A DNA stretch of 64,000 nucleotides from an uncultured delta proteobacterium (GCA_963816145.1 CAWFJP010000014.1:192001-256000), one strand, 5' to 3'; shown: positions 4,049-52,100, counted from the stretch's first letter. A program made the numbers and translations. The notes: generated by a model from the sequence alone, not told the origin.

Positions 4049-5047
4049 TTATTTCAGCCCCAGACTCCTGACGAAGCCGCTCTCGTCCAATTCCTTCACG
4101 ATACTGTCGTCGAGAATTTCTTCCACCTTGACGTCCTTGACCTTGGGATTGTCGCGGGCGGTAAAGTCGATCAGGGTTTTCCAGCCGCGGTTGACCGGGT
4201 AGGGGACTTTAGCGCGGATCTTGTTCACGTAGATGTCGTAGGCGACTTCCAGGATTTCGTCGTCGTTGACGCCGCCGTGGCTGGCCAGCAATTTTTTCGA
4301 CAGCGGTTTGTTTTCTAGGTTTACCTTGATCGCTTCGAGGTAGGCTTTCATGAAGCTGACAACCACCGGTCTCTTGGACTGCATGAACCGGCGCGTGGTG
4401 GCGACGCCGTTGAACGGGAAGTCGCCGCCGAGTTTCGAGATATCGATGAGCGTGTTGTAGCCCTGGCGCGCAAGCAGTTGCGCGAAGGAGTTGCCAAGAC
4501 CCATGGCTGCCGCGGAGATTTGGCCGGCCTGGAGCGCCGTGTAAGTTTCGCGCAGGCCGCCGGTGTAGATGACTTTCACGTCTTTGTCCGGCACCAGCCC
4601 ATGATGGCTGAGGCCGAAGCGCGCCCAATAGTCTGTGTTGGCGCCGCGCCGGGTGACGCCCACCGCTTTGCCTTTGAGATCATTCGGTTGCTTGATCTCG
4701 GGGCGCGACATGATTTGCGCCGCCATGCTGTTGATGATGGTGGCGATGAACACTGCGTCGACGCCCGCGGCTTTGCCGAAGAGCACGGCGGAGCCACCGA
4801 TCTGGCCGATCTGCACGTCGCCCGAGATCATCGCCTGGATGATTCTTGTGCTGCCGCCGAGATAGACTGTGCTGACATCGAGGCCGTACTTTTCGAACAA
4901 GCCGGTTTTTGACGCGGTGATCAGGGTCAGTTCGGACGGGCTGATCGATGAATAACCGGCGACGAGTTTTTCCGCGGCGGAACCATGCCGCGTCAGGGCA
5001 GTGCTGAGTATGACGAGGGCGACGAACGCAATGGATAGTTGTCTCAT
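4049..5047 (-). CDS. ABC transporter substrate-binding protein, NMT1/SsuA/TauA type
   Basis: Signal peptide, GLFEKYGLDV, DLKGKAVGVTRRG, C-terminal DDSIVKELDESGF. Confidence 0.85.
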   Translation of the reverse strand: MRQLSIAFVALVILSTALTRHGSAAEKLVAGYSSISPSELTLITASKTGLFEKYGLDVSTVYLGGSTRIIQAMISGDVQIGQIGGSAVLFGKAAGVDAVFIATIINSMAAQIMSRPEIKQPNDLKGKAVGVTRRGANTDYWARFGLSHHGLVPDKDVKVIYTGGLRETYTALQAGQISAAAMGLGNSFAQLLARQGYNTLIDISKLGGDFPFNGVATTRRFMQSKRPVVVSFMKAYLEAIKVNLENKPLSKKLLASHGGVNDDEILEVAYDIYVNKIRAKVPYPVNRGWKTLIDFTARDNPKVKDVKVEEILDDSIVKELDESGFVRSLGLK

Positions 5048-6161: not shown

Positions 6162-8075
6162 TCAGGTTTTTGCGCCAAGTGCCCGCGCGATATAATCGCG
6201 CCGAACCTTGGTGCGCGGAACTTTGCCGGTAAACCAGCTCCGCACATCGGCGTCGAGGCCGATGCCGTGCATGTAGTTGTACAACGCCTTGTTCAGGGCT
6301 GTGCCGAGGGCGTCGTGGTCGACGCCGATGGGGTCGAGGAAGCCGACGTCGTTTTTGGCGAACGAGATCTCCGGCAAAGGGACGAGCGTGACGCCGTATT
6401 GTTCGGGATGCTTGCCCACCGGTGAATGCACCGTGCAGGCAAAGCGGTGGAAGAAGCCTGACTGGATGCAGCCGGCTATGAACAATTGCCGGACATATTC
6501 GAGGGCATCAACCGTGTCTTGCACGGTTTGGGTCGGGAAGCCGTACATCAAATAGGCGTGGACGAGAATGCCGGCGTCGGAAAATGCGCGCGTGACTCTG
6601 GCGACTTGCTCGACGCTGACGCCCTTCTTCATTAAATTGAGCAGGCGGTCGGAGGCGACCTCGAGCCCGCCGGATACCGCGATGCAGCCGCTGTCGACGA
6701 GTTCTTGGCAGAGCTGCGGCGTGAAAGATTTCTCGAAGCGAATGTTGCCCCACCATGAAATGGCCAGCTTGCGTTTCTTGATCTCGGCGGCGAGTGCTTT
6801 CAAGGTTTTTGGCGGTGCGGCCTCGTCGACGAAATGAAATCCGGTCTGTTGGGTTTCGGCGATGACGGTCTCGATGCGGTCGGCCAGGGTTGCGGCGGCG
6901 AGGTCGTCGTAGCGCGAGATGTAGTCGAGGGTGACGTCGCAGAAACTGCACTTTTTCCAGTAGCAGCCGTGGGCGACGGTGAGTTTGTTCCAGCGGCCGT
7001 CGGACCACAGCCGATGCATCGGGTTGAGCATGTCCAGTAGCGACAAGTAGCCGTCGAGCGGCAGTCCGTCCCAAGTCGGCGTGCCTACTTCCGCGAATGG
7101 AATGTCGGGCTCGCGTGCGTCGATGTAGCGGATTGTGGATTTATCGGCAGTGCGCCGGAAGGTGCGAACCAAATTGCTTTCGGGCCGGTTGCCGCCCAGA
7201 TATTCTAATAACGCCAACAGCGGCCGCTCGCCGTCATCCAAGGTGACATAGTCGAAATAATCGAACACCCGCGGCTCGCTCAGTTCGCGCAGCTCGGTGT
7301 TGACATAGCCGCCGCCGAGCGCGGTGATTATCGATGAATCGCGGGCTTTGATCGCCTGGGCGATGCGAAACGCGGCGTACACCGAGCCTGGGAACGGCAC
7401 CGAGAGCAGCACCAGATTCGGCGCATGGCGCGCCAGCGCCGCCAGCGTTAGGTCACGCAGTGTGCTGTCGACCAGATTGAGCGGCGCGGCCAGCGCTTCG
7501 GCGAGGGGATCGAAGGTCGGTTGGCTTTGCGCTAGAGACTCGGCATAGCGGACGAACTCAAAGCGCGGGTCGACGGCCTCGCGCAACACGTCGGCGAGAT
7601 CATCGAGGTAAAGAGTCGCCAAGTGTTTAGCGCGGTCTTCTATCCCAAGCGCTCCGAACGCCCAAGCCAGTGGATCGTCGGTGCCGCCTTGCAGATAAAA
7701 ATCTATTGGCTTGAAGCGCGGCCCTTCGGGAAGGAATTGCCGTCCACAAATGCGATGCGCCAGGGTCGGATCACGCCCCTGCAGGAACGCGATGGCGGGG
7801 GTGATCGTCGAGAGATAACGGTCGAATTTCTGGAGAAATGCTTTGGCGATCGGCGAACGCTTGCGCTGCGGGATCGCCTCGGCACGGTCCCGGATGGCTA
7901 ACAGCCCGTCAGTGGAAAAAAGCTTTAAGACTAGAGCCAATGCAAGATCTTCCTGCACAGCATCGAAACCCCGCGAGCGCAAGAAGCCGGTGAGATATGC
8001 CGTTGACGGATATGGCGTATTTAGCTGAGTCATCGGTGGGATTAGCGACAGCACGCGAATAGAATTGGTCGACAT
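6162..8075 (-). CDS. B12-binding-domain radical SAM protein
   Basis: PPMTQLNTPYPSTAYL N-terminus, GCYWKKCSFC (CxxxCxxC), FHFVDEA, SGGLE, AYLMYGFP. Confidence 0.9.
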   Translation of the reverse strand: MSTNSIRVLSLIPPMTQLNTPYPSTAYLTGFLRSRGFDAVQEDLALALVLKLFSTDGLLAIRDRAEAIPQRKRSPIAKAFLQKFDRYLSTITPAIAFLQGRDPTLAHRICGRQFLPEGPRFKPIDFYLQGGTDDPLAWAFGALGIEDRAKHLATLYLDDLADVLREAVDPRFEFVRYAESLAQSQPTFDPLAEALAAPLNLVDSTLRDLTLAALARHAPNLVLLSVPFPGSVYAAFRIAQAIKARDSSIITALGGGYVNTELRELSEPRVFDYFDYVTLDDGERPLLALLEYLGGNRPESNLVRTFRRTADKSTIRYIDAREPDIPFAEVGTPTWDGLPLDGYLSLLDMLNPMHRLWSDGRWNKLTVAHGCYWKKCSFCDVTLDYISRYDDLAAATLADRIETVIAETQQTGFHFVDEAAPPKTLKALAAEIKKRKLAISWWGNIRFEKSFTPQLCQELVDSGCIAVSGGLEVASDRLLNLMKKGVSVEQVARVTRAFSDAGILVHAYLMYGFPTQTVQDTVDALEYVRQLFIAGCIQSGFFHRFACTVHSPVGKHPEQYGVTLVPLPEISFAKNDVGFLDPIGVDHDALGTALNKALYNYMHGIGLDADVRSWFTGKVPRTKVRRDYIARALGAKT

Positions 8076-8415: not shown

Positions 8416-8790
8416 ATGCGCGTGCTCAAAATCAACGATCTTAAGGAAACCCCGATGGACACGGCAACGCCGATCGCCGGCTGGACCGGCGGGGCGGTGA
8501 GCCGGACGCGGCAGGCGGTCATCGGCGATGGGCAGTCGGACAACTTCCGCTGTAACGTGGTCAACTTTCGCGTCGGCGCCACCACCGGCTGGCATGTCCA
8601 TGACTGCGATCAGATTCTCGTGGTCACGGCCGGCAAAGGCTTCGCCGCGACGGAGAGTGAACAGCGCGAGATCACCGTCGGCGATATCGTGCATATTAAA
8701 TCTGGCGAGCGCCACTGGCACGGCGCTTCGGCGGATTCGCCGCTGTCGCATATCACGGTGACGACGGTGGGCAGCACTTCGAAGCATTAG
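8416..8790 (+). CDS. Cupin domain protein
   Basis: TGWHVHDCDQIL...GKG and GERHWHGA cupin motifs; RBS AAGGAGG. Confidence 0.88.
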   Translation: MRVLKINDLKETPMDTATPIAGWTGGAVSRTRQAVIGDGQSDNFRCNVVNFRVGATTGWHVHDCDQILVVTAGKGFAATESEQREITVGDIVHIKSGERHWHGASADSPLSHITVTTVGSTSKH

Positions 8791-8850: not shown

Positions 8851-9741
8851 ATGGAAATTATCCGCGGCAACTTGAGCGATATCAAAGGCATCCCGCCGAG
8901 CGGTTTATGCGTCGGTGTGCACCGCGCCGGCGCGGTGCATAAGAAGATGGTCGCCAAGCATGGCGACGGTCTGGCGGTCTGGTCGCTTAGGCCCGATCTC
9001 GATTTCATCGCGTTCAAAAAGGAAGGCCTTGGTGAACAGGGGATTCGCTCGACCAACGACATGGCATCGATCGACGGCAATGAAAAACTGATTTATGGCG
9101 TGCGCGGCGCGCCGCCCGAGGTGCGCGAAACGGCGCGCGAGAAAGGTCTGACGCTGCTCGCCGACGCGACCTGTCCCTTTGTTTTACAGCAGGAAGAGGC
9201 CGAGATCGAGCTACTCAACGACGGGCGCCACTTGGTGTTACTCAGTAGTCCTACCCATCACGGCGTGCCGAGGATTCAAGGCATCGCGCGGACCAAGGGT
9301 AAAGAAGTCTTTATCGTCGAGCATGAGGACCAGGTCGACTCGATCCATCTGACTCGATTCGAACCCATCGGCGTGATCGTGCAGACGACTTTCTGGGTGG
9401 AAACCTACAAGAAAATCGTCGCCCGTTTACTGGAGCATTTCGCCAACGTGCAAATTCGCAACACTTCCTGCATCGACTCGCTGCAGCGCCTTCCCGAAGT
9501 CGAGAAGCTCGCCAAGCAAGTCGAAGCGATCGTTATTTTTGGCTGGACCGAAGGGATGACCACCCGGATGCTCGAAGTGGCGCGCGCTTTCAATCCGAAT
9601 GTTTACAAAATCGAGAAGGTGGACGATCTCCGGCTCGACTGGCTGCGCGGCAAGGAAACGGTCGGTATCATCGGTGCCAACGAGACACCCGAATGGATGA
9701 TGAACGATGCCATCGAGCGTATGAAGAGCATGGTGGCCTGA
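8851..9741 (+). CDS. Divergent IspH/LytB-fold [4Fe-4S] reductase (probably not a functional HMBPP reductase)
   Basis: Three cluster Cys retained (SGLCVGV, DATCPFV, NTSC) plus QTT, but the VHN, AHG, HPE, SSN and GAS motifs are altered; RBS AAGGAGGA. Confidence 0.8.
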   Translation: MEIIRGNLSDIKGIPPSGLCVGVHRAGAVHKKMVAKHGDGLAVWSLRPDLDFIAFKKEGLGEQGIRSTNDMASIDGNEKLIYGVRGAPPEVRETAREKGLTLLADATCPFVLQQEEAEIELLNDGRHLVLLSSPTHHGVPRIQGIARTKGKEVFIVEHEDQVDSIHLTRFEPIGVIVQTTFWVETYKKIVARLLEHFANVQIRNTSCIDSLQRLPEVEKLAKQVEAIVIFGWTEGMTTRMLEVARAFNPNVYKIEKVDDLRLDWLRGKETVGIIGANETPEWMMNDAIERMKSMVA

Positions 9742-9744
9742 ACC

Positions 9745-10026
9745 GTGCCGAAGATCACTTTCATTCCAGCGGAAAAATCGTTCGATGTCGCGCCAGGCAC
9801 GACCATCCTGGTTGCCGCAGTGCAAAACGGATTGCACCTGCGCCATGATTGCACCGAAGCGGTTTGCGGCACCGACCGGGTGAAGATCCTTTCCGGTGCG
9901 GAGCAGCTGAGTGCAATAACCGACAACGAGGAATTGACCCTCGAGATGATGAACGCGGGGCCCAACGAAAGGCTGGCTTGCGTCGCACGGATCGCCGGCG
10001 ATGTGATTGTCGAAATGCCCGAATAA
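9745..10026 (+). CDS. 2Fe-2S ferredoxin-like protein, third ligand Cys replaced by Asp
   Basis: HDCTEAVCGTDRV...ERLAC; GTG start 3 nt after the upstream stop. Confidence 0.85.
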   Translation: MPKITFIPAEKSFDVAPGTTILVAAVQNGLHLRHDCTEAVCGTDRVKILSGAEQLSAITDNEELTLEMMNAGPNERLACVARIAGDVIVEMPE

Positions 10027-10045: not shown

Positions 10046-11152
10046 ATGCCGGCACCTGTGGCAATTCTAGCAAAACCGGACGATCACCGCGGCATTCTCA
10101 CCATGGCAGAAGCGGTCGACGCGATGCTCGATGCATTTCGCAATTGGGCGAATGACCCGCTGGTGGCGGAGCTGCGGCGACGCACGCACACGCCGAAGAA
10201 CGTGCGCATTACCCTACATCAGGGCGCGGCACCGGCTTATGGCACGACGGGCATCATGACCCATGCGGAGCTTGTGCGCATTTTCGGCGACAAACAAAAA
10301 TATCCGCGCCGCGGCCGCCCGGTTCTGGTGCTTTATGACAGCGACACGGCGGCTTTGAAGCTCATTCTCGTCGGCGAAATGCATCCCAAGGAGCTGCCGG
10401 ACGCCAACAGCGTGGTGGCGATGCCGACGGCCTGTGCCTCGATGGTCGGCACCGATTTGCTCGCGCGCAAAGACTGCCGGGTCGCCGGGGTTTTCGGTGC
10501 TGGAGATCAAGCGAAGATGCATCTCCTGGCGCTCACCTGTATTCGCAAGTCGATTGACAAGGCGCGCGTCTTCAGTCCGACCCGCGAGACTCGCGAAAAC
10601 TTTGCCGCGGAAATGAGCGCCGTATTGGGCATCGCAGTGACCGCCGCGGAGAGCGCTGCAGATGTTGTCGACGGCGCCGACGTAATCCTGTGCGCGACCA
10701 ATTCAAATGTTCCGGTATTCGACGGCAATTGGCTGGTTCCCGGCCAACATGTCACCTCGATCGTTTCGAGCAATATCGGATTGAAAAAGCGCGGCCACGT
10801 CATTGAAATGCGCCGCGAGATCGACGAGAGGACTCTGGAGCGGGCCGATATTTTGCTGACCAACGTTTGGGGACAGGAAGAGCTGGACAAGACCGCGGTG
10901 TTCTGGGAAGCCTCTCTCGATCGCCCAAACATCGCGGGCAAGATTGTCGATAGCGGAGAGCTCATCCGCGGTGAAAAAAGCGGACGAACCGACGCTGCTC
11001 AAATTACCTATTTCAAAAACTGCGCGTTTTGGGGTATTGGCGCGGCGGCCATCGGCGGACTGATCTATGACAAACTCTTGCAGCAGCGCAAGGGTTTGGC
11101 GCTCGACTTCAACCCGCATGAGTTCTATGACGATACTTGGGCGGAGGATTAG
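10046..11152 (+). CDS. Ornithine cyclodeaminase/mu-crystallin family protein
   Basis: GVFGAGDQA Rossmann motif, VFSPTRE, ADVILCATNS, GRTDAAQITYFK; RBS AAGGAG. Confidence 0.85.
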   Translation: MPAPVAILAKPDDHRGILTMAEAVDAMLDAFRNWANDPLVAELRRRTHTPKNVRITLHQGAAPAYGTTGIMTHAELVRIFGDKQKYPRRGRPVLVLYDSDTAALKLILVGEMHPKELPDANSVVAMPTACASMVGTDLLARKDCRVAGVFGAGDQAKMHLLALTCIRKSIDKARVFSPTRETRENFAAEMSAVLGIAVTAAESAADVVDGADVILCATNSNVPVFDGNWLVPGQHVTSIVSSNIGLKKRGHVIEMRREIDERTLERADILLTNVWGQEELDKTAVFWEASLDRPNIAGKIVDSGELIRGEKSGRTDAAQITYFKNCAFWGIGAAAIGGLIYDKLLQQRKGLALDFNPHEFYDDTWAED

Positions 11153-11218
11153 ATTTGTTTGAATGAGCGGGAAGCCTGGGTTACAGCGCGAAGATGATCG
11201 CAAGGAGGATTGGATAGC

Positions 11219-12124
11219 ATGCGCGGTATAACACCGAGACGAGAACAGGGCATGGCCGATCCGGTGTTGGCCGAGATGGTTCATGCCACCGGGGCGACGG
11301 AGTCGCGTCACTACGCGGCGGTGAAGCCGATCATTCAAGCCTATCGCGCCAGTTGGGTGAAGTTGGCGCCGTTTCGCGACGGGCCGGTCAACCCCCAGCG
11401 CGTGCCGGTCGACGATCCGGCGGCGATGACGGCGCAGATCAAGGCGAAGGCGAGCGAGTGGGGCGCCAACTTGGTCGGCGTCTGCCGCCTGCAGCCGCAT
11501 ATGATCGATCTCGGCTCGGAAGTGTCCCACGAGTTTGTCATCGCCTGCTGCGTCGCCGAAGACTACGAAAAGGTGCTTCAAGGCCCGGACGCCGTCGAGG
11601 AAGAGGCGATGCGGACGTACGCGAAGTGCACCGAGATATCCACTGCGTTAGCTGCCTACGTCCGTGAGATGGGATATCCCGCCATCGCGCACCACAACGG
11701 CGCCAGCGAGGTGCAGGCGATCCCAATTTTCTACCAAGTCGGATTCGGCGAGCTCGGCCGGCATGGCAGTCTGATCAATGAAAAGTATGGCGCGAGCTTT
11801 CGCCCTGGTTTCGTCACCACCGATTTGCCGCTCGTCGAAGACCAGCCGCGAGAGTTCGGCGTTCAGGACTTCTGCATGAACTGCAACGTTTGCCAGCGCA
11901 ACTGCCCGGGCGACGCGATCCCGCAAGACCATGTCATGACCCATGGCATCAAGCGCTGGCTGATCGATTTGGAGAAGTGCTATCCGTATTCCCGCCTGCG
12001 CGAGGAGTATTGCCATCTCTGCGTCGACGTCTGCCCGTACAACGTGAAGTCGCATCCGGACACGTACAAAGCGCTTATGAAAGAGCGTAAACAGGTTGGC
12101 TATAAGACACCAAAGACTTATTGA
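11219..12124 (+). CDS. Reductive dehalogenase-like cobalamin/2x[4Fe-4S] protein (short, no Tat signal)
   Basis: WGANLVGV, GFGELGRHGSLI, VTTDLPL, CMNCNVCQRNCP and C-x10-CHLCVDVCP. Start uncertain (11163 with a frameshift, 11219 or 11252). Confidence 0.75.
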   Translation: MRGITPRREQGMADPVLAEMVHATGATESRHYAAVKPIIQAYRASWVKLAPFRDGPVNPQRVPVDDPAAMTAQIKAKASEWGANLVGVCRLQPHMIDLGSEVSHEFVIACCVAEDYEKVLQGPDAVEEEAMRTYAKCTEISTALAAYVREMGYPAIAHHNGASEVQAIPIFYQVGFGELGRHGSLINEKYGASFRPGFVTTDLPLVEDQPREFGVQDFCMNCNVCQRNCPGDAIPQDHVMTHGIKRWLIDLEKCYPYSRLREEYCHLCVDVCPYNVKSHPDTYKALMKERKQVGYKTPKTY

Positions 12125-12403: not shown

Positions 12404-12955
12404 ATGCCCTATATCAAGACGATTCCGCCCACAGAGGCGACCGGAAAACTGAAGGAAGTCTATGAAACGGCGGGCGGCCCTTCGGCGGCGCGCGGCAAGG
12501 TCGCGATGGTGCGCCAGGTGCAAAGCCTCAATGCCGACGCGCTCGCCGCCTGGAGCGATCTTGGCGCAGCGATCATGCACGGCCCGTCGCGCCTGAGCAG
12601 GCGCCAGCGCGAGATGATCGCCACGGTGGTGTCGGCGACCAATCATTGCAGCTATTGAACGACTGCGCACGGAGAGGCTCTCCGTAGCGAAACCCACGAC
12701 GATCCGTTCGTCAAAGCGATTAAACAGGATTACACCAAGATTGATTTAACGGCAGCGGAGCGGGCCATGCTCGATTACGCGGTGAAACTGACGGTGACGC
12801 CGTCGAGCGTAACGGCAGAAGATGTTTTGATATTGCGCGCTCATGGGTTCGACGACCGCGATATACTCGACATCATCTACGTTGTTTGTTTGTACAATTT
12901 TAACGACCGGCTGGCCGACGCGACCGGCATCAAAGGGCATGATTTTCTTAGTTGA
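12404..12955 (+). CDS. AhpD/carboxymuconolactone-decarboxylase-like peroxidase, predicted selenoprotein (CxxU), 183 aa
   Basis: ORF-track pieces 12404-12658 and 12767-12955 are in frame across a single TGA (12656-12658): REMIATVVSATNHCSY-U-TTAHGEALR...AERAMLDYAVKLT...YNFNDRLADATG. TGA occupies the second Cys of the AhpD CxxC..H motif. Confidence 0.88.
12667..12688 (+). promoter_or_regulatory. Bacterial SECIS-like hairpin
   Basis: GC-ACGGAGA-GGC-TCTCCGT-A-GC; G-containing loop about 17 nt after the UGA. Confidence 0.7.
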
Positions 12956-12994
12956 CATCGTCCGCCGCCGGGTGTGACGCACAGGTTGGCCATT

Positions 12995-13876
12995 ATGCCG
13001 TTCAGCTACGCCGAGTTCATGACTCAACTGATGGCGCCCAAGCCCTATCCAGCGCAGGCGGTTTTTACCGCGCCCCGGATAACGGCACTGCGCAAGCCGG
13101 TTGCAGAATGCACCCTCGGTGTCTTTACCAGCTGTGGCGCACAGCTGAAGGACGACCGACCGCTGGCCGAGACCAACGATCTTTCCTACCGGCTGCTGCA
13201 CCGTGACGTAGCGCTCTCGGAGCTGAAGATCAATCACATGACGCCGTCGCGCAAGTGGGCGCTGGAGGACTTGAACGTCGCTTATCCGCGCGACCGGCTG
13301 ATCGAGTTGGAGGCGGAGGGGGTTTTCAAGAAGCTTGCGCCCAGCGCCGTTTCCATGGTCGGTTCGATCACGTTGTACACGGAGCTTTTGAGCGATGCCG
13401 TGCCGCGGATCAAGCAAGAATTCGACCGGCAGGAAGTCGACCTGGTGCTGATCGTGCCGTTTTGACCGCAATGCCATCGGTCCGTGGGACTGATCGCAAG
13501 AGGACTGGAAGCGAGAGGTTTGCCGACCGTGAGCCTGAGCACCGTATGGGACATCACTCTGGCGGTAAAACCGCCGCGGCCATGCTTCCTGGATTTCCCG
13601 ATCGGCTGTCCGGTCGGCAAGCCGGGCATGCCGGAATTGCAGCGGCAAATACTGAAAGCGGTCTTCTCCCAGGCGGAGAAATTTACCGGTGATTGGGCGC
13701 TGCATGAGCTGCCCTTCCAGTGGGCAAAGGATGGCAGCCGTCATTGGGAGGAAGAGCTCAAGGATCTCTACCGGCGAGGCCTCGGCACGGTGGAGGCGCA
13801 TGTTGCGGATCATCGCCGTCGCGGTGAGGCGCTGATCGGTCAAGAGGAAGCGTTTGCGCTGCGCTGCAATTGCTAG
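12995..13876 (+). CDS. Glycine/sarcosine/betaine/proline reductase selenoprotein B (GrdB/PrdB)-like protein, UxxC, about 293 aa
   Basis: Pieces 12974-13465 and 13484-13876 are in frame across TGA 13463-13465: VDLVLIVPF-U-PQCHRSVGLIARGLEARGLPTV...KPPR. N-terminal LRKPVAECTLGVFTSCG and DLNVAYPRDRLIELEAEG match this family. Confidence 0.88.
13472..13498 (+). promoter_or_regulatory. Bacterial SECIS-like hairpin
   Basis: TGC-C-ATCGGTCC-GTG-GGACTGAT-C-GCA; G-first loop about 18 nt after the UGA. Confidence 0.7.
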
Positions 13877-15806: not shown

Positions 15807-15866
15807 GTCTAACGTTTTCGGTGAGAGGCGCGAATTTCAGCGTCCTTCTCGACCCAATGGTTAGGT
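15807..15866 (-). other. attC site (60 bp)
   Basis: Minus strand ACCTAAC-CATTGGGTCGAGAAGGACGC...GCGCCTCTCACCGAAAAC-GTTAGAC; the mazF stop TAA lies within the RYYYAAC inverse core. Confidence 0.85.
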
Positions 15867-16199
15867 TCCGATAATCTCGTTCAATCCTTCAACAACCTGA
15901 GCCAATTCCTCTGGAGACGCCCGACCCATCACCTTTCCAATCCGTTCGACCGCGAGTGTTCGGATCTGGCTGATTTTCACCCACGACTTTTTCGGTAGCC
16001 CCCGTACATGAAGTTCGAGTGTTAAGGGGAACCCAGCGCGTTGAGGTTGACTCGTGAGCGCAACAGCAATCACCGTTCCGGAACGTTCATTGAAAACGTC
16101 CTGGCTTAGAATCAAAACCGGACGTAATCCGGCCTGTTCACGTCCCCGTACCGGATTCAAGTCGGCCCAGCGGATTTCACCCCTCAGTATTCGGGCCAT
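15861..16199 (-). CDS. mazF: Type II toxin, PemK/MazF family endoribonuclease
   Basis: [33 protein letters not shown]. Confidence 0.93.
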
Positions 16200-18618: not shown

Positions 18619-19650
18619 CTACCGCCCGGATTGCAAAGCCACTCGTTTCCTCGCTTCCGCCAGGTAGCCGTTTTCTTCGAGCGCTTTCACGACGCTCATG
18701 TTGATGGATTCGTTGACGTCGACTTGGCCGGCCTTGGGATTGACCCGGGCGATGAATCTTTGGATATTCTTCCACGCCGCCGGGTCCGGCGCGATGTCGA
18801 GGCTGGTCATCGAACGCACGGAAAGATACGAGGTCTCGGCATCCTCGTCGGTGGTCAGGCGCAGGTGTTTTTTCATAACCTCGGCGACTTCCCGTTTGTT
18901 GCGCGGATCGAGAATGTAAACGATGCCGTCGATCATGCCTTTGGTGAGGCGCATGATCAGGTCGGGAGAAGCGGCCAGTCGCTCAGCCCGTCCACAGATA
19001 CCCACAGTCTGCAGCGGGATGCGCAGATCCGACGAGTTGACCAACGAGCGCATGCCGCCGCGCTTGGCCACCGCCGCGGAGGGCAAGGTCACGACCGCGG
19101 CATCTATGTTCGCACTGAGCAGTGCTTGGACGATGGTCGGTTCATCGCCGATGACGCGAATTTTCATGCCCAACTTGTCGGGGTCGAGGCCGAGACCGTC
19201 CAGGACCATCATAGTCTGGAGCCAGAATCCGCCGCCGATGCTTTGCACTCCGATAGTCTTGCCGCGCAGCGCCGCCACCGAGTCAATATCCTTGCGCACC
19301 ACCAGTTCGCGCGAAATCCCCTTGATCGGGAACGCGACGCAACCGATCTTCACCCCGGCCGACACGCCGCTCAGTACATTGCCGACCGACGGTAGAAAAA
19401 TCGGCACCTCGCCCGACACCAGCGCCGCCAAACTGATCTGCGCGTTACGCACCTGCAGCAAGCGCGCGTCGATCCCGTGCTTTTGATAGAGCCCTTTGTC
19501 GATCGCCACCCAATAGGGGCCGATGGTTTCGTTATGGCCGCCGTAGGCCATCAGCACAACGTCATCGGCGTGGGCTCGCCCTAGGAGCGAGAAAAACAGA
19601 ACGATGGAAATGCATCGACAAAGTCTCCAGGGTAGAAGCGCCAAATACAT
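18619..19650 (-). CDS. ABC transporter substrate-binding protein, NMT1/SsuA type
   Basis: Signal peptide, YWVAIDKGLYQKHGID, LRGKTIGVQSIGG, VVKALEENGY. Confidence 0.82.
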   Translation of the reverse strand: MYLALLPWRLCRCISIVLFFSLLGRAHADDVVLMAYGGHNETIGPYWVAIDKGLYQKHGIDARLLQVRNAQISLAALVSGEVPIFLPSVGNVLSGVSAGVKIGCVAFPIKGISRELVVRKDIDSVAALRGKTIGVQSIGGGFWLQTMMVLDGLGLDPDKLGMKIRVIGDEPTIVQALLSANIDAAVVTLPSAAVAKRGGMRSLVNSSDLRIPLQTVGICGRAERLAASPDLIMRLTKGMIDGIVYILDPRNKREVAEVMKKHLRLTTDEDAETSYLSVRSMTSLDIAPDPAAWKNIQRFIARVNPKAGQVDVNESINMSVVKALEENGYLAEARKRVALQSGR

Positions 19651-25773: not shown

Positions 25774-25918
25774 ATTCTCCGCCCGATGCAATTTAGGGTT
25801 GAGCAATGAAGGTCGTATACCGACGCCGCTCGACCGAAAAGGCGCACTTGTGATATTGGTCGCAGCCGTGAGTAATTTTCTACGAGCAGAGTTGCGCAGC
25901 GTTTTTGCTTGCTGCGTC

Positions 25919-28480
25919 ATGCTCTCGACGGCGGGCGGTTTTACGGCTTGCGCTTTGTCTCCGGATGGCTCGGCGCAGCGGCAGCGACCATTTGTTTCCG
26001 CGCCATCGGATGGCTTTACCAATTTTGAAACCGAACCGGTGCGCCCATTGGCGCTGTCGGCGGACGGTCGCTATCTCTACGCACTCAACACCGCTGACGA
26101 CCGCTTGGAGATCTTTGAAACGCAGGGCGACGAGCTGCGTTCAATCGGCGAAACCGGAGTCGGCCTGCGCCCGGTGGCGCTCGTCGTGCGCGGGCAACAA
26201 GTTTGGGTCGTTAACCATTTGTCCGACTCGGTGAGCGTCGTCGATGTCGGTGATCCGGCGCGCCCCCGTGTCATCCACACACTGCAAGTGGGCGACGAGC
26301 CGCGCGGCATAGTGGTTGGCGGGCCGAAGCGGGATCGCGTGTTCGTCGCCACGGCGCGGCGCGGCGAAACCCTGACCCCTGGCATTGGACGGGCACAGCT
26401 CTGGGTCTTCGACGCGGCGCGGCCGGAGGCGCCGCCGCGGATCGTGACGCTGTTCGGCGCCAAGCCGCGCGCCCTTGCGGCGTCCGCCGACGGCAGGCGT
26501 ATTTATGCCGCGGTGTTTCTTTCCGGCAACCGCACCGCTTCAGTCTCTGGCGAAGACGCCGTGCGCCTCGGCCGGGCGCGGCAAATCTATTTCGATAATA
26601 TTCCGTATGCCGCTGTGCCCAAACAGGGCGTCATTGTGAAGCGAACCGAGCGCGGTTGGCGCGACTACGACGGTCGCGACTGGAGCGCCGCGGTGGCGTT
26701 CGATTTGCCGGATTACGATGTCTTCGTCATCGATGCCGAGGTGGAGCAGCCTAGGGTCGTCCAGACCATCAGCGATGTCGGCACGGTGCTGTTCAACATG
26801 GCGGTGCAGCCCGGCACTGGCGAGATTTGGGTATCCAACACCGAGGCGTTCAATCTCATCCCGTTCGAATCCCGGCTCAACGGTCGATTCGCCGAGAATC
26901 GCATTACGCGGGTGGTCCCGGATCAGTCGAACGATTACCGGACGGTGGTGGTTGATTTGAATCCGCATATCGCGTCCGCTGCGGGACGCGCCGCTGGCGA
27001 GATCGGACTAGCGCAACCGTTGGATTTGGTTTTTCAACCCGATGGGGGCGAAGCCTACGTCGCTGCGTTCGGTTCGCGCAAGGTCGGCGTGCTCGATGGC
27101 AGCGGCACCATCATTGATCACATCAACGTTGGTTTCGGCCCCGGCGGCTTGGCCCTCGACCCAAAGCGCCGGCGGCTGTATGTGCTCAACCATCTCGCTG
27201 CGACGATCTCGATCGTTGATCCTGGCAAGCGCCGGAGCATTGGAGAAGTCGCCTTGCGCCACGATCCGACGCCCGCGACGATCAAGGAAGGACGGCGTTT
27301 TTTTTACGACGCCGCCTTGACTTCGCGCTTCGGCGATTTGTCCTGCGCCACCTGTCATGTGTTCGGAGATGTCGATGGATTGGCCTGGGACCTGGGCGAT
27401 CCCAGCGGGCCGACGTTGGATATTCCGGTCGGCTTGCGCAACACCGGGCTCTCCACGCCGCGGCAAAACCTCCACCCTCTCAAAGGTCCCATGGTGACGC
27501 AGAGTTTGCGCGGGCTTGCCGGCAACGCGCCGTATCATTGGCGCGGCGACCGTTTCGGCGATGCGGCGGCGCCGGGCGGCGACGTCGCAGGCTTCAAAGA
27601 CTTCAATCCGGCCTTTGTCGATCTGCTCGGCCGCGCCGAAGAGATTACCGATGCGGCGATGGAGGCATTCGCCCGCTATATTTTCACCATCCGTTTCCCG
27701 CCCAATCCGCTGCAGCGGCTCGATCGCTCTTTCGATGCGCAGCAACAAGCCGGCTTCGAGTTTTTTACCGGGCCGTTCCTTTCCGGCTCCGGACAACAAA
27801 ATTGCGAGAACTGTCACCAACTCCCGGCAGGCACCAATCGTTTGGTCAATTTCGAAGGGCCGCAGATCGGCCGCGATATGAAGACAGCGCAGCTGCGCAA
27901 CGTCTACGACAAAATCGGCCGCTTCAATGCCGCCGGACCGCAAGTGTCGGGCTTCGGTCTGCTGCACGACGGCACCTTCGAAAGCGTGGCGAGTTTTTTG
28001 CGCTTGGACGTGTTCTTTTTCCCCGGAAACTCCGAGACGGAGAAAGATGTGATTCGGCGCCAGCTGCATGATTACGTTATGGCATTTGATACCGGCATGG
28101 CGCCGGCGGTGGGACGGCAGCTGACCATCAACGGCGCATTGACAGGCGATGAGCGGCCGACCTTCGAACTGCTTACGAACCGAGCCGGGGCTGGCGATTG
28201 CGACCTCATCGCCCGCGGCTGGGAAGGAAAAGCTCTGCGCGGCTGGTTGTATAAAAGCGGCGCATTCCAAGGGGATCGCAGCGGCGAACCGGCGCTGGCC
28301 CCGGATGCGCTGCTCGAGCGTTTCATTAATTACGGCGAACCGTTGACGCTGACCTGCGTGCCGCCGGGGGACGGCCGGCGCAGCGCCCTCGATCGCGCCT
28401 TGGATGGAAATCTCGACGGCGACGCGAAGGCGCGCCGGCGGCGCTCGGGCGGGGCATCGCAGCTTTGTGCGGCAAGCGGA
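25919..28480 (+). CDS. YVTN/YncE beta-propeller plus di-heme cytochrome c domain protein
   Basis: FTNFETEPVRPLALS, WVVNHLSDSVSVVD, SCATCH, KGPMVTQSLRGL, CENCH; C-terminal boundary uncertain. Confidence 0.75.
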
Positions 28481-28663
28481 ATTCAACCCATGAGATGGTC
28501 AGAACTTGACATGCCGCGGCGGAGCCGCCGGTGCAATTCGGAATCTCCCGCGCAAACACGCAAGGTCGTAAAGTTGTCGACTCGATTTCGAAGACTGGCG
28601 TCATGTCGAGATCGCTGCGGATTTGCCGGGCGATATTTCAATTTCAATCAATCGATCGTCGCG

Positions 28664-29758
28664 ATGCTCACGGCGATCTCGTTGGCCGCTTGCGCCGGTC
28701 TTCCCGTGCACGGCCTGGTCGGCGGACAGAGTTTCGACACCCGAGTCGATGCCGAAGTAGCGCAGTATTATCTGGCGAGCTATCTTTCCGGCCGCCGCAC
28801 CGACCCGGTGCTCGACCAGCGAATCGCCAAACTCTACCAGAACCCTTCCGGACTGCTACCCGACCGCGCCGAGCTCAAGCGTCTGAGCGATGAATTTTCC
28901 GTCGATTTCGCCGCGGCGTATTTCGCCGACCGCGTCGCCGAGATGCCCGACAATCGGCAATTCAGACGTGTGTTCAGCGAGAACCGCCGCGCCTTTGCCC
29001 AAGGCCACTTGAAACTGCCGGCGGTTGCGGCCCAGTACGAGGTGATGTTCGTGCCGACATATCTTTATAAGAGAGTGCCGTTGATCGGCTCGGATCTCGC
29101 CGTGCCCAAAAAGGCGTTGGAGAAAGCCGGCATGGCGGTGCATTTCGTCGAGACGGTGGAAGACGGCGCCGTCGAGGCCAACGCGGAGATTGTCGCCGCC
29201 GCGATCGTGTCACGGACGTCGAGCGGGCGGCGTTTGATTCTCGTCAGCGCGAGCAAATCCGGACCCGAAGTGGCGCTCGCCTTGACGCAGCTGGGACCGG
29301 TGCGGTCGCGCCATGTCGCCGGCTGGGTCAATGTGGTCGGCGCCCTGCAAGGAACGCCGCTTGCCGACGAGAAGGCGCTGTCCGACGCGGAGAGCCTGAT
29401 CGGCGCGGTCGATCCGGCCGGCATGGAAAGTTTGACGACCGAGCGGAGCCGGCGCCGCTTTAGACGATTTCGCCTCCCCGACCACATCATGGTCGTGAAC
29501 TACTTCGGCATCCCGCTCTCGGGTGATTTGTCGTCCTGGGCTCGGGTTGGATTCAAACCCTTGTCCAGGTATGGCCCCAATGACGGCATTCTTTTGCTCC
29601 CCGATATGATTTTCCCGGGCGGCATCAGCGTTGCCGAGATCGGTTTGGATCATTTCTTATTGGATCGAAATACCGATGCGGCCACGGTCGGCCTGGTGGC
29701 GGCGATGATGCAATGGATCGGGCAGGCGCCCGGCACGTTCATGCCGGTCTCAAACTGA
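28664..29758 (+). CDS. Putative lipoprotein alpha/beta-hydrolase
   Basis: Lipobox LAAC, SASKSG nucleophile-elbow variant, GTPLAD, NDG, LDH. In frame with the upstream ORF in this assembly but probably a separate gene. Confidence 0.65.
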   Translation: MLTAISLAACAGLPVHGLVGGQSFDTRVDAEVAQYYLASYLSGRRTDPVLDQRIAKLYQNPSGLLPDRAELKRLSDEFSVDFAAAYFADRVAEMPDNRQFRRVFSENRRAFAQGHLKLPAVAAQYEVMFVPTYLYKRVPLIGSDLAVPKKALEKAGMAVHFVETVEDGAVEANAEIVAAAIVSRTSSGRRLILVSASKSGPEVALALTQLGPVRSRHVAGWVNVVGALQGTPLADEKALSDAESLIGAVDPAGMESLTTERSRRRFRRFRLPDHIMVVNYFGIPLSGDLSSWARVGFKPLSRYGPNDGILLLPDMIFPGGISVAEIGLDHFLLDRNTDAATVGLVAAMMQWIGQAPGTFMPVSN

Positions 29759-39278: not shown

Positions 39279-41143
39279 GGCGTGAGAAAAAATCTCCAGC
39301 GGCTCATGTTCGTAGTATATATAGGAGCATAGTGAAGTTCAGAGCAAGAGCCGAGGTTTTATAATCAGAGTCGCACAGGAACCGAAGCGGAGGAGGAGAG
39401 GGAAGAGTGGGGATAGAACAGGAAAGGTTACCCGGATGTGAATCGGCGGTTGGAAGTGAAGCGCAAGCCAAGCAGAGGTCGGCGGCCAGGATGGGCAAGC
39501 CGCGTTACGAAGTGATCGACCGCGAGCAGCTGTGTTGGCGGCAGATCGATGTCGAGCGGCTGATCGGGGCCGACCATCCAGCCCGGGCGGTGTGGGAGTT
39601 TATCGGGCGTCTTGATTTAAGCGCATACCAGCAAGAGGCACGAGCGGTAGAAGGCCAAGCGGGACGGCCGGGATGGGAGCCGCGGTTACTGATCAGCCTG
39701 TGGGTGTATGGGTACAGCAAAGGAGTCGGATCAGCGCGAGCGATCGAAGAGTTATGTGAATGGGAGCCAGCCTACCAGTGGCTGACGGGATCAAGAGTGG
39801 TCAATGCCCATACGCTATCGGACTTTCGGGTCAAGCACGACAAGGCGCTCAATGGGCTGTTTGTGCAGGCCTTGGGGCTACTGAGTACCGATGGATTGAT
39901 CACGCTGGAACGAGTGATGCAGGACGGGACCAAGATCAGAGCCAAGGCAGCAGCGGATAGTTTTCGTCGCCAAGAGCGAGTCGAAAAAGCGCTCAACGAA
40001 GCCAAGGAGCAAGTGGCCGCGCTCCAAGCGCAGAGCGAAGAGGAAACCAGCCGGCGCATGGCCAAGGCACGCCAGCGAGCGGCCCGCGAGCGCCAGGAGC
40101 GGCTAGAGCAAGCGCTCAAGGAATTTGAGCAACAGGAAAAACAAGACAAGGACAAAGAGCAAAGACGAGTGAGCACGAGCGATCCCCAAGCGCGAGTGAT
40201 GAAACAGCCTGGGAGTGGGTATGCGCCGAGCTACAATGTGCAGATTGACACCGATGCAAAGAACGGTGTGGTGGTGGCGGTGGGAGTGGTGCAAGCGGGC
40301 AATGACTTCGAGCAATTGGCGCCTGGGATTGACCGAGTGCTACAGAACCAAGGCGAGACTCCCAAAGAAGTGGTCACCGACGGCGGCTATGTCAGTAAAG
40401 AGACGATCGTGGCGATGAAGGAGCGCGAAATCGAGTACATCGCGCCGTGTGTCGATGAGGTGGGCAAGGGACAGAGTTCCTATGACAACCGCGGCGTGAG
40501 CGCCGAGTATCAAAGCTCCCAGTTTATCTACGATGCTCAGAGCAATAGTTATCGTTGTCCGCAGGGAAAGATCCTGAAGTATGAAGGCAAAGAAGAGCGC
40601 CACCTGCAGCTGAGCTACCGGTATCGAGCGCAGAGATCGGACTGCCAGGGATGTCCGATGAAGAGCCAGTGTTGTCCTGGGAATCGAGTGACGGGGCGGT
40701 CGGTGCATCGCAGCGAAGAGTTGGCCGAAGTGGCCGAGTTTCGTCAGAAGATGGAGACACAACGAGCGCGCGAGATCTACAAAACCAGAGCCCAGGTGGC
40801 CGAGACGCCCAATCTGTGGATCAAGGCGAAGTTTGGGCTACGCCAGTTCAGCGTGCGCGGGTTAGCCAAGGTGGGGATGGAAGCGCTCTGGGCGTGTCTC
40901 ACCTACAACATCCGAGTGTGGATGCGGCTATGCTGGAGAAAAGCAGTGGTGGTGCAGCCTGCGTAGAGAAAAGGGAGAAACACGTCGTGTAGAAGAGAAA
41001 ATCGGCCAGTTTTGAGCCGCTCAACAGCGGTTCAAAGTTTCGCATCCGAATAATTACGGCAAAGATGAGTTTTTTCCAAAAAAGAAAAAACGCCGAGGCG
41101 TAGGATCAATCCAGATTACGATAAATCAATTTTTTCTCATGAC
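39279..41143 (+). mobile_element. IS1182-family insertion sequence (1865 bp)
   Basis: 15-bp imperfect IRs GGCGTGAGAAAAAAT / ATTTTTTCTCATGAC; flanking direct repeat CGCAG (39274-39278, 41144-41148). Confidence 0.85.
39407..40966 (+). CDS. IS1182-family DDE transposase
   Basis: DHPAR, GRPGWEPRLL, TLSDFR, QDGTKIRA, SDPQAR, PSYNVQ, TDGGY, CPQG, CQGCP, FGLRQFSVRG; start may be 39491. Confidence 0.92.
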   Translation: MGIEQERLPGCESAVGSEAQAKQRSAARMGKPRYEVIDREQLCWRQIDVERLIGADHPARAVWEFIGRLDLSAYQQEARAVEGQAGRPGWEPRLLISLWVYGYSKGVGSARAIEELCEWEPAYQWLTGSRVVNAHTLSDFRVKHDKALNGLFVQALGLLSTDGLITLERVMQDGTKIRAKAAADSFRRQERVEKALNEAKEQVAALQAQSEEETSRRMAKARQRAARERQERLEQALKEFEQQEKQDKDKEQRRVSTSDPQARVMKQPGSGYAPSYNVQIDTDAKNGVVVAVGVVQAGNDFEQLAPGIDRVLQNQGETPKEVVTDGGYVSKETIVAMKEREIEYIAPCVDEVGKGQSSYDNRGVSAEYQSSQFIYDAQSNSYRCPQGKILKYEGKEERHLQLSYRYRAQRSDCQGCPMKSQCCPGNRVTGRSVHRSEELAEVAEFRQKMETQRAREIYKTRAQVAETPNLWIKAKFGLRQFSVRGLAKVGMEALWACLTYNIRVWMRLCWRKAVVVQPA

Positions 41144-43033: not shown

Positions 43034-44083
43034 CTACTTTACGCCGGCGGCCTGAAGGTACTTGAGTTCGACGAAGCGCTCGGCTGCGGGCAGGGGCTGC
43101 TTCAGCAATCCGGCTTCATTCATGAACGCGATGACTTGAGACAGCCCTTTGACATTGACCTCGCCTTGGATCGGTAGGACATTTTTCTCCGGTTCGAAAA
43201 ACAGCGCGAGGGTTTTCTCGGCAATGTCGGCGGGGGTATCGGTGGTTTCGAGGATGGTTTTGATGACCGCCTTGCGGTTTGCCGGATTGCGGATGAATTT
43301 GAAGGTCGCGCTCAGGCCGCGCAGGTAACGCACGCTAGTTTCACGATTTTTCTCGGCCCAGGAGCGGCGCGCTGCCGTCACTGTATAGAGAAAGTCCGGA
43401 ACCGCGTCGTTGGAAATGCCGAGGACGCGGAATCCTTCTTTTTGCGCGATCAAGTCCTGAGGCTGGCCAAGTGGGACTGCGTCGCACTCACCCCGCTTAA
43501 GGCAATTCCAGCGCGTCGGCGTGCCTTCAATGGTTTTGACGCGAAAGTCGCCGCTATTGACACCATGCATCGCGAGTAGTCTGCGTGTCGAAATCGAAAT
43601 GGTTCCAGCCTCATCAGCCAAGCCGATCAGTTTGCCTTTGAGATCGGCGAAGGTTTTGATTTCCGGTTTGACCACCAGGCTGTAGATCGGGTTGGTGAAC
43701 TCAGCGGCGATGGCGACCGCGTCGGAACCGTTGAGCGCGGCGCGAATCAAAAAGGGCACGGCGACATGGGTTATGTCGACGGTGTCGTCATGGAGCGCGT
43801 CGATCATCTTGTCCGACCCGCCGGGTATTGGGATGATGATTTTGAAATTCAAACCGGCTCGGCGAAAAAAGCCTTCGCGCTCGCCAACGAAAATCGGCAG
43901 CGAGAAGATGCTCTTGGCCGCGGAAATCGCTTGGCCGTAGCGCAGCGCGATGGATTGCGCGGCGGTTTCAAATCCAGTGATCGTGCAGAATGCGAGGACG
44001 AGCGGCAAGGTGAGCCAACTCTTAAAAAAACAGACGGCCTGAATTTCCTGCTGCGCGGGAATTACGGTTGGGGACGGGGACAT
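43034..44083 (-). CDS. ABC transporter substrate-binding protein, NMT1/SsuA type
   Basis: EGFFRRAGL, IYSLVVKPEIKTFADLKGK; start uncertain. Confidence 0.82.
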   Translation of the reverse strand: MSPSPTVIPAQQEIQAVCFFKSWLTLPLVLAFCTITGFETAAQSIALRYGQAISAAKSIFSLPIFVGEREGFFRRAGLNFKIIIPIPGGSDKMIDALHDDTVDITHVAVPFLIRAALNGSDAVAIAAEFTNPIYSLVVKPEIKTFADLKGKLIGLADEAGTISISTRRLLAMHGVNSGDFRVKTIEGTPTRWNCLKRGECDAVPLGQPQDLIAQKEGFRVLGISNDAVPDFLYTVTAARRSWAEKNRETSVRYLRGLSATFKFIRNPANRKAVIKTILETTDTPADIAEKTLALFFEPEKNVLPIQGEVNVKGLSQVIAFMNEAGLLKQPLPAAERFVELKYLQAAGVK

Positions 44084-47091: not shown

Positions 47092-48096
47092 ATGAAGGTT
47101 TCGCGAACCATCAATATTATCGTCGGTCTACTGTGGGTCGTTGTCGGCATCGTCGATCATGCTGCCGCCCAGGAAAAAGTTCGTTTGTCGCATAGCGCCT
47201 TGGAAACCAGCAATTCGGTGTGGTTTATCGCCCAGGAGCTAGGTTTCTACAAGAAATACGGCGTGGATTCCGAGCTGCTTTACATTCCCAGTACGACGAC
47301 CAGCTTAACGAGTCTCTTGGCTGGGGATGTTCACGTCGCCAATGTGTCGGGAGGCGCGGTGGCGAGCGCGGTGTTGGCGGGCGCGCAGATCGCCCTTGTG
47401 TCGTGCTATCTCAATTCGCTGCCTTATGAATTGGTCGTCAACGAATCGATAAAATCGGCCGAAGAACTCAAAGGCAAGAGCGTCGGTATCAGCCGTCTGG
47501 GGAGCGCGTCCGATGTGGCGGCGCGGGCGCTTCTGCGCGGTTTGAACTTGGAACCGGACAAACAAGTGCCGATCCTTCAAGTCGGCGGTTCGTCCGAAAG
47601 GGCGGCGGCGTTTCGCACGGGGCGCATCGCCGGATTCCCGTCGCCGCCGGGGATCGTTCACTTGACCAAGGGGATGCCGTTTCGGATTCTCATCAGCACG
47701 GCGGATTTCAAACAGCGCTTCGAGTTTCCCTATATTTGCGCGGCGACCACGCGCGACTATCTGCAAAAAAACCGCGACATCGTCAGAAGGGTGATCATGG
47801 CCCATATCGAAGCGGTGCACTTCGTCAAAACCCGCAAGGACGAGAGCAAAAAGATCATGTCCAAATACGCCCGCACGACCAACGAGGACTATTTGGAATC
47901 GGCTTATACGGCGAGTTCTAAACTCTACGATGCGGTGCCGCTGGTGACTCGGCCCGGCGTCGAAATTCAAATCCGCGAAGCGATCGCGACGGCGCGCAAG
48001 CCCGGCGCCCAGCTGCGCTTCGATGACATGGTTGATGAAAGTATCGTTCGTGAACTCGACAAGAGCGGGTTCATCGATAAGATTTACAAGCGCTAG
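47092..48096 (+). CDS. ABC transporter substrate-binding protein, NMT1/SsuA type
   Basis: Signal peptide, GFYKKYGVD, LKGKSVGISRLGSAS, DESIVRELDKSGFID. Confidence 0.85.
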   Translation: MKVSRTINIIVGLLWVVVGIVDHAAAQEKVRLSHSALETSNSVWFIAQELGFYKKYGVDSELLYIPSTTTSLTSLLAGDVHVANVSGGAVASAVLAGAQIALVSCYLNSLPYELVVNESIKSAEELKGKSVGISRLGSASDVAARALLRGLNLEPDKQVPILQVGGSSERAAAFRTGRIAGFPSPPGIVHLTKGMPFRILISTADFKQRFEFPYICAATTRDYLQKNRDIVRRVIMAHIEAVHFVKTRKDESKKIMSKYARTTNEDYLESAYTASSKLYDAVPLVTRPGVEIQIREAIATARKPGAQLRFDDMVDESIVRELDKSGFIDKIYKR

Positions 48097-51122: not shown

Positions 51123-52100
51123 ATGACGACAAAACCTTCCGATAAACCTATGACCCGTTCGATCGGTAGAGACACGATCCGTTCCCGTTTGGTGCTCGAA
51201 GTGGCTGCCGAGATGATCGAGCAAGAGGGTTGGCCCAACCGTCAGGCGCGAGTGAGCTTGCGGCCTCAGGGCGCGGAGGAGTGGGCGGTGAACATGATCG
51301 CCAGCGATGGGCCGGCGGCGCTGGATATGGTCGCGCGCGGCGAGATGCAACTGGCGATTAGTAATCCGGCGATGTATTTGGCGTTGGCGCTGCGCGGCAC
51401 GGGGCCATACAAAAAGGCTATTCCCTTGCGCGCCATCACCGTCATTCCGTCACCGGATCAATTGGCTTTTGCCGTTACTGAAAAGACCGGCTTGAAGTCG
51501 CTGCACGAGATTCGCGAGCGGCGTGTGCCGCTGCGGGTGTCGGTGCGCGGCCAGCGGGATCACGCGCTGCATCCGATCACCCATGAAGTCTTGAAGGCTA
51601 TGGGTTTCTCCCTTGACGATATCGTTTCCTGGGGCGGGCAGGTGCGCTACGATGACGGCTTGCCGAGCAAAGACAACCGCTTCGGCGCGATGCAGCGCGG
51701 CGAGGTCGATATGATCATCGACGAAGCGGTGCGCGGCTGGGCCAACAGTGCGCTCGATGCCGGCATGCGCATCCTGCCGCTCGAGGAAAGTGTCTTGGCG
51801 AAAATGGAAGCGCTCGGCCTGCGTCGCGGCATTATGCCGATGGCGCGCTATCCAAAGTTGGGTAAAGATTTACCAACGTTGGATTTCAGCGGCTTCGCTG
51901 TTTATACGCACGCCGATGTGCCCGATTCAGTCATCACATCGATCTGCGCGGCCCTGGAAGCGCGCAAGGAGCGCATCGGCTGGCAGGAGCCAGGGCCGCT
52001 GCCGGTCGAAAGCGGTTGCCGCGACACCGCCGACGGGCCGCTGGTGATTCCACTGCACCCGGCGGCGGAGAAATTTTGGCGCGGGCAAGGGTATTTGTAG
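51123..52100 (+). CDS. TAXI-family TRAP solute-binding-like protein
   Basis: C-terminal IPLHPAAEKFWRGQGYL, LRAITVIPSPD. Confidence 0.65.
   Translation: MTTKPSDKPMTRSIGRDTIRSRLVLEVAAEMIEQEGWPNRQARVSLRPQGAEEWAVNMIASDGPAALDMVARGEMQLAISNPAMYLALALRGTGPYKKAIPLRAITVIPSPDQLAFAVTEKTGLKSLHEIRERRVPLRVSVRGQRDHALHPITHEVLKAMGFSLDDIVSWGGQVRYDDGLPSKDNRFGAMQRGEVDMIIDEAVRGWANSALDAGMRILPLEESVLAKMEALGLRRGIMPMARYPKLGKDLPTLDFSGFAVYTHADVPDSVITSICAALEARKERIGWQEPGPLPVESGCRDTADGPLVIPLHPAAEKFWRGQGYL

Follow-up and report, generated by a model that had tools for sequence, protein, structure and literature searches.

An IspH-fold protein with intact cluster ligands, a rebuilt active site and a co-occurring ferredoxin partner in uncultured Binatia

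The LytB/IspH superfamily has, to our knowledge, so far been treated as a single-function family devoted to one reaction, and we know of very few enzymes besides IspH that use an iron–sulfur cluster for bioorganometallic C–O bond cleavage. IspH is also a drug target. Its diphosphate pocket comprises H41, H74, H124, S225, S269, T168, N227 and Q166, and the E126Q, E126D and E126A mutants are almost inactive, as given in the accessible part of PMC8837944. The present study concerns a gene found in a window of 64,000 nucleotides, i.e. the whole stretch of DNA that was analysed (G000:C14:192001-256000), from the genome of an uncultured delta proteobacterium (G000, 7.8 Mb in 31 contigs). A preliminary description had proposed that this gene encodes an IspH-fold protein in which the cluster ligands are intact but the active site is rebuilt. 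The gene belongs to a same-strand run that comprises, from 5′ to 3′, the following genes and then a GST gene; occurrences refer to 26 related loci.

8416–8790, plus strand: Cupin_2 protein, 124 aa, directly upstream of the IspH-like gene and with its own AAGGAGG; 4 of 26 loci
8851–9741, plus strand: IspH-like (LytB-fold) protein, 296 aa, predicted [4Fe-4S] cluster ligands C20/C108/C207
9745–10026, plus strand: predicted 2Fe-2S ferredoxin of 93 aa; its GTG start codon lies 3 nt beyond the stop of the IspH-like gene
10046–11152, plus strand: ornithine cyclodeaminase/mu-crystallin family (OCD-like) protein, 368 aa; 11 of 26 loci
11210–12124, plus strand: short reductive-dehalogenase-like (RDH-like) protein, 304 aa, with a 2x[4Fe-4S] domain; 7 of 26 loci
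12404–12955, plus strand: AhpD/CMD-type peroxidase-related protein, probable selenoprotein, in-frame TGA at codon 85 (C-S-Y-U)
12974–13876, plus strand: PrdB/GrdB-like putative selenoprotein, in-frame TGA at codon 164 (U-x-x-C); 1 of 26 loci

The IspH-like frame is intact and runs for 296 codons from an ATG with an AAGGAGG box located 8 nt before it, and the cupin gene may be the one that opens the operon. A scan for promoters and terminators yielded sites no commoner than in shuffled sequence, and no RNA run was present among the sequencing runs that contain the stretch, the holders being DNA runs labelled as wetland, soil and sediment metagenomes. Divergent from the operon lies a gene for a B12-binding radical SAM protein of 637 aa (6162–8075, minus strand), whose best NCBIfam matches, a PhpK-type P-methyltransferase and a RiPP C-methyltransferase, were far below the cut-offs; at none of the other loci was it a neighbour of the IspH-like gene.

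Membership of the product in the superfamily was clear, as Pfam LYTB (PF02401) matched residues 16–292 with 151.4 bits, above its gathering score of 24.5. Each of the seven NCBIfam IspH models hitting the protein, however, scored under its curated equivalog cut-off, e.g. TIGR00216 with 130.4 versus 187.85 and NF002187 with 138.6 versus 276. The closest solved structures were all IspH (Aquifex 3dnf, 9e-33; E. coli, ~1.5e-19), and an AF2 model built from a 95-row alignment (pLDDT 94.9, pTM 0.90) retrieved solely IspH chains in Foldseek at E ≤ 1e-15, with a TM score of 0.79–0.85 and 21–26% identity to E. coli IspH. An ESM Atlas search likewise returned solely LytB clusters, and a Pfam scan revealed no DNA-binding or signalling domain. 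The proposed fold was thus borne out by both modelling and structure search, and the residue losses by the alignments.

To locate these losses, residues were mapped to E. coli IspH by HMMER pairwise alignment, by MAFFT with 15 and with 95 sequences, and by hhalign profile–profile alignment, and the pocket geometry was deduced from these alignments alone. All three methods placed C20, C108 and C207 at C12, C96 and C197, and T179 at T167, in agreement with the four equivalents already listed as retained; H136 (H124), Q178 (Q166) and T180 (T168) were kept by all three methods too, the retention of H124 being a new addition. The three cysteines, predicted ligands of a [4Fe-4S] cluster, did not vary in any of the 34 family or 57 canonical sequences. 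The H41 motif was indeed missing (H41 becomes D51 in MAFFT and hhalign or F52 in HMMER, and N42 becomes I53), while H74 was replaced by R85, S225/S226/N227 by E234/G235/M236 and S269 by E278 in all three methods, the same changes that had been noticed by eye. As for the reported change of HPE to HHG, the loss of E126 held, but that register, which puts G138 at E126 (HMMER), is one of two, the other being R141 after a 3-residue insertion (MAFFT, hhalign); no acid occupies the position in either. Altogether, five of the eight diphosphate-pocket residues of IspH proper were replaced and three kept (H124, Q166, T168), with E126 replaced as well, so that the protein differs from IspH proper also in the proton-relay pair Glu126/Thr167, where T167 persists as T179 and E126 is lost. 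The family-specific pocket residues are R47, D51, R85, H137-G138, R141, E234, M236, N277 and E278. As the substitutions were invariant in all 34 sampled family sequences, the active-site changes are not due to chance; the canonical residues were 91–100% conserved in the 57 canonical sequences. These comparisons confirmed, at the level of alignment and model, that the gene encodes a predicted IspH-fold protein with cluster ligands intact and active site rebuilt.

A word-indexed search found 360 related proteins, and the best 120 of the 360 were nearly all 72–92% identical and 290–375 aa long, with P0006 (58% identical) as the exception; the names of these best 120 point to Candidatus Binatia or “Deltaproteobacteria” MAGs. 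An exhaustive HMMER search over 1.84 billion 50%-cluster representatives added a handful of full-length non-canonical clusters, namely P0016 (the main one), P0125 (46%), P0130 (39%) and P0144 and P0145 (35–36%), below which ordinary IspH starts at ~120 bits. At 90% identity the P0130 clade splits into seven clusters, of which one bears the label Thermodesulfobacteriota, and two metagenome scans for the genomic context of P0125 and P0130 gave no match. In a quick ML tree, whose canonical rows were those most similar to the query and which is the only tree reported, 13 non-canonical proteins were split from 57 canonical IspH by a branch with an SH-aLRT of 99, and G000's own canonical IspH grouped among the 57. 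Among genomes of the class, the IspH-like gene was detected in 51 of 401, all in three families of one Binatia order. Family f1 accounts for G000 plus 19 of 63 genomes (10 of 21 within the genus of G000), and every genome sampled from f112 (27 of 27) and f113 (4 of 4) had the gene; the 306 genomes sampled from 17 other families of the class yielded no copy. Within a 401-genome sample of the phylum, G000 alone carried it.

The distant relatives also bear on the ligand. The preliminary description had taken the new acidic residues as a hint of a neutral or cationic, non-phosphorylated ligand; this was not supported as stated, because it is arginines that are conserved most widely among the new residues, and E234 and E278 are Binatia-specific. 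R85 and R141 were present in four of the four distant members (P0125, P0130, P0144, P0145) and R47 in two; common to all four were, besides R85 and R141, the H137-G138 insertion, Q114 and D209/S210, with N277 in three, and these shared replacements are basic or neutral. The acidic E234 and E278 were restricted to the Binatia clade. A carboxylate, phosphate or sulfonate, i.e. an anionic group, would be accommodated at least equally well by two to three arginines beside H136/H137; these could bind phosphate or diphosphate, i.e. the substrate could be phosphorylated, or they may pair with the new acids in internal salt bridges. An anionic handle or such salt bridges would therefore fit this pattern better than a neutral or cationic ligand.

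The tight coupling to a ferredoxin gene, noticed previously, turned out to reflect a dedicated, co-occurring partner. The ferredoxin matched Fer2 (PF00111) with 43 bits against a cut-off of 21 and has only three cysteines (C36, C41, C79), in the ligand pattern H34-D-C36-x4-C41-x2-D44...C79, where Asp occupies the usual third-Cys position. D44 and H34, the latter two residues before the first Cys, were invariant in 21 of 21 ferredoxins (orthologues compared: window 9745–10026, L003–L024, L039, L048, L052 and L071), a pattern that points to an unusual cluster ligation. Fifty-one related loci were compared, 26 in group A (74–89% identical) and 25 in group B (69–71%, one genus). Directly 3′ of the IspH-like gene, the ferredoxin gene was found in 24 of the 25 group A loci with downstream sequence; in group B, the sister genus, the orthologue (60–62% identical) was unlinked and far off on the chromosome, and present in 25 of 27 genomes. 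Across the class, the ferredoxin occurred in 47 of 401 genomes, all 47 among the 51 IspH-like carriers, with no occurrence in the remaining 350 genomes; these counts are not independent because the genomes are related and, in f1, both genes are adjacent and would be gained or lost together. Without G733 and G743, which are flagged unpublished, there are 49 IspH-like and 45 ferredoxin carriers. In the same genus, five of five non-carriers (95–99% complete) yielded no ferredoxin. Thus, the ferredoxin is the only constant partner of the IspH-like gene. It may serve other enzymes too, as in the sister genus it lies directly upstream of a PEP-mutase/isocitrate-lyase-family gene in three of three loci (L071:574-1815, minus strand; L069; L070). 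A complex prediction for the two proteins scored 0.25 (mark 0.32) and carries no weight either way.

Since the cluster site is kept, the diphosphate and proton-donor residues are replaced and the ferredoxin travels along even when unlinked, IspH-type chemistry on another substrate is suggested, and we favour, with moderate confidence, a ferredoxin-driven [4Fe-4S] reductase or dehydroxylase that performs IspH-type two-electron chemistry on a predicted non-HMBPP substrate. The assembly of the cluster, the ferredoxin as donor, the type of reaction and the nature of the substrate are what we infer from these patterns. The protein would be a neofunctionalised IspH paralogue, a cytoplasmic [4Fe-4S] enzyme with a trefoil fold, whose three cysteines would leave one cluster iron free for the substrate, with the Thr-Thr, Gln and His predicted beside that iron kept and the distal pocket, which serves HMBPP diphosphate binding and proton delivery, apparently rebuilt. 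Electrons would most likely be supplied singly by its own, presumably Asp-ligated, 2Fe-2S ferredoxin; a hydroxyl or other heteroatom of the substrate would bind the free iron and be removed or reduced in a two-electron reductive dehydroxylation, while Arg85, Arg141 and Arg47 may bind the substrate by an anionic handle, and the proton that Glu126 donates in IspH could come from a different residue or from water.

The preserved cluster site and the missing proton-delivering Glu would also fit a non-redox Fe-S enzyme or a sensor, in which the free iron acts as a Lewis acid (a hydratase or dehydratase, aconitase-like or akin to the acetylene-hydratase side activity of IspH) or senses O2 or iron, and the ferredoxin is a mere cluster or redox buffer. 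IspH can convert alkynes to aldehydes or ketones, according to the accessible part of PMC8837944, and genes for Fe-S assembly (DUF59, Mrp/NUBPL) follow downstream at 2 of 26 loci. We nevertheless regard this as unlikely, because the strict co-occurrence with a dedicated ferredoxin is explained most simply by electron transfer, other recurrent neighbours, namely the RDH-like protein and a Cys-x-x-Sec protein, are reductive too, and the Pfam scan gave no domain expected of a DNA-binding or signalling protein.

Beyond the ferredoxin, the neighbourhood varies and forms no coherent pathway, and we dismissed a pathway deduced from the neighbours as insufficiently supported. Non-carriers, too, have OCD-like orthologues, e.g. 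3 of 11 in genus g256, for which the count of the IspH-like gene was 0 of 10, and many carriers lack them. At one of the 11 loci with both genes, ferredoxin and OCD-like protein share one 458-aa frame (L013:3790-5166, plus strand; Fer2 + OCD_Mu_crystall), which could reflect a genuine fusion, a short deletion or misassembly. The RDH-like protein matched TIGR02486 with 119 bits, under the cut-off of 160. The AhpD-type gene was found in 11 of 26 loci, either upstream or downstream of the IspH-like gene; its TGA is retained at the corresponding position in 5 of 6 related loci, and SelB is encoded in the G000 genome (417 bits), and the gene probably encodes a selenoprotein. The PrdB/GrdB-like gene matched TIGR04483 with 115 bits, below the cut-off, and has the same TGA in L003, and no PrdA/GrdA-like partner was seen near it. 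Elsewhere in the 64-kb window there are five NMT1/THI5-like periplasmic binding-protein genes (4049–5047, 18619–19650, 43034–44083, 47092–48096 and 51123–52100), a family also encoded next to the IspH-like gene at many of the related loci, and a 1319-aa ORF (25799–29758, plus strand) with a faint di-haem cytochrome c peroxidase match alone. A MazF/PemK-like toxin gene (15861–16199, minus strand) and a DDE transposase gene (39407–40966, plus strand) fit a mosaic accessory region.

In group B, a UbiD-family gene replaces the ferredoxin gene after the IspH-like gene and is followed by a SLOG/TIGR00725 gene and, in most loci, by one for an AI-2E transporter. The UbiD family of prFMN decarboxylases is extraordinarily expanded in G000 and five congeners, with 45 matches in G000 itself, next to one clear UbiX, and 35–47 in the congeners.

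The group B arrangement raised the possibility of a role in UbiD/prenylated-FMN metabolism, in which the protein provides dimethylallyl monophosphate for UbiX from an HMBPP monophosphate analogue, or prepares or consumes the substrate of one UbiD. Both the UbiD-family gene and the SLOG/TIGR00725 gene follow in 25 of 25 sister-genus loci, the former after a gap of ~12–145 nt in 23 of them; the IspH-like/UbiD/SLOG block stays while the upstream genes vary, a C5 prenyl product is attractive in view of IspH chemistry, and G000 is rich in UbiD matches. The adjacency is limited, however, to one genus whose members are 89–95% identical to each other, and in G000 the UbiD orthologue (72% identity) is found on a different contig, with an alpha/beta hydrolase and an SDR as neighbours, and the single UbiX on yet another. 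Moreover, all five congeners counted above (G448, G537, G606, G633 and G757) lack the IspH-like gene, so the gene is dispensable for general prFMN supply, and with at least 40 UbiD genes per genome a chance adjacency becomes likelier. We therefore give this role a small probability, a little below that of a non-redox enzyme or sensor, and retain the ferredoxin-driven reductase as the preferred reading.

A search of G000 for a separate canonical ispH found one on contig 17 (326 bits) with all motifs, and both forms coexisted in six of six carrier genomes checked (G000 and five others). The IspH-like gene is therefore not a sole, essential copy as IspH proper is, the canonical copy being present in all six carriers and the paralogue in only 10 of 21 same-genus genomes. 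This weighs against a second, divergent but functional HMBPP reductase, i.e. an isozyme in which arginines replace histidines and serines as diphosphate binders. Such an isozyme would share the fold, the cluster ligands and H124, T167, T168 and Q166 with IspH, the three new arginines could hold a diphosphate, and relatives are called HMBPP reductase in several databases, but these names are automatic; E126, whose Q, D and A mutants are almost inactive (accessible part of PMC8837944), is lost, two of the five pocket replacements are Glu, the protein scored below every equivalog cut-off, and a patchy presence within one genus is unlike an essential step. We consider an isozyme very improbable.

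Selection was then evaluated from pairwise comparisons. The IspH-like gene had a dN/dS of 0.04–0.17 in 20 computable pairs, and of 0.04–0.14 in the least saturated ones (dS 0.41–0.67), indicating purifying selection rather than decay. Its identities in four genome pairs were 86, 84, 76 and 70%, versus 67, 69, 63 and 47% for canonical IspH; from genome to genome, the housekeeping enzyme is thus the less conserved of the two. A decaying or non-functional duplicate, as might be read from the patchy presence in the genus and from one related copy with a frameshift or stop (L019), is effectively refuted by these selection data and hardly credible given the invariant family-specific residues, the gene's presence in every genome sampled from two families (27 of 27 and 4 of 4), the intact frame and the good ribosome-binding site. 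The gene is a paralogue under strong purifying selection, neither a replacement for ispH nor a wreck.

Going further, and only tentatively, the protein may be the founding member of a second LytB/IspH class, a ferredoxin-driven, organometallic-type [4Fe-4S] reductive dehydroxylase of soil and wetland Binatia whose substrate would be an allylic or otherwise activated alcohol, non-isoprenoid and probably anionic (carrying a carboxylate), with the dedicated Asp-ligated ferredoxin as donor. The distant P0125, P0130, P0144 and P0145 clades carry the R85/R141/H-G signature and may use other substrates. If true, Fe-S C–O cleavage chemistry would have been reused for another substrate, and nature would provide a “pocket-swap” with which to test the roles of E126 and of the diphosphate cage. 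As relatives are labelled HMBPP reductase in public records, MEP-pathway calls are inflated, and the same labels would mask an unknown reaction carried out by uncultured but widespread bacteria of soil and wetland. Among the titles and abstract openings listed from the open-access literature, no IspH class without catalytic residues was described, and nothing was found there joining IspH to Binatota, or Binatia to UbiD.

With respect to known systems, the C-x4-C-x2-D...C pattern of the partner ferredoxin resembles what we take to be the Asp-ligated 2Fe-2S centre of the succinate dehydrogenase type, and SdhB-type subunits were among its weak NCBIfam matches. Unlike SdhB, it is a stand-alone protein of 93 aa, and its best matches were ISC-type and reductase-domain ferredoxins, far below the cut-offs. 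The IspH-like protein resembles canonical IspH in its modelled three-domain trefoil, in the three cysteines predicted to hold a site-differentiated [4Fe-4S] cluster, in the equivalents of H124, Q166, T167 and T168 and in its similar length, and electron supply by a ferredoxin is plausible for it as well. It differs in its low identity (21–26%), in the replacement of H41, H74, E126, S225, S226, N227 and S269, in the 3-residue insertion after H124 (or a G at E126) and in scores below the curated cut-offs, and its gene differs in coexisting with a canonical copy, in its patchy accessory distribution and in having its own ferredoxin gene. Also comparable are the fused or extended IspH classes that come from family-wide sequence networks, i.e. 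IspH-RPS1, IspH-UbiA and the plant and Plasmodium N-terminal extensions (Rao et al., PMC4746011), which are likewise variants within the InterPro/Pfam LytB family; the accessible part of that report describes no class without the catalytic residues. Those classes, as presented there, keep the HMBPP active site and add domains, whereas the protein described here has a plain architecture and a changed active site.
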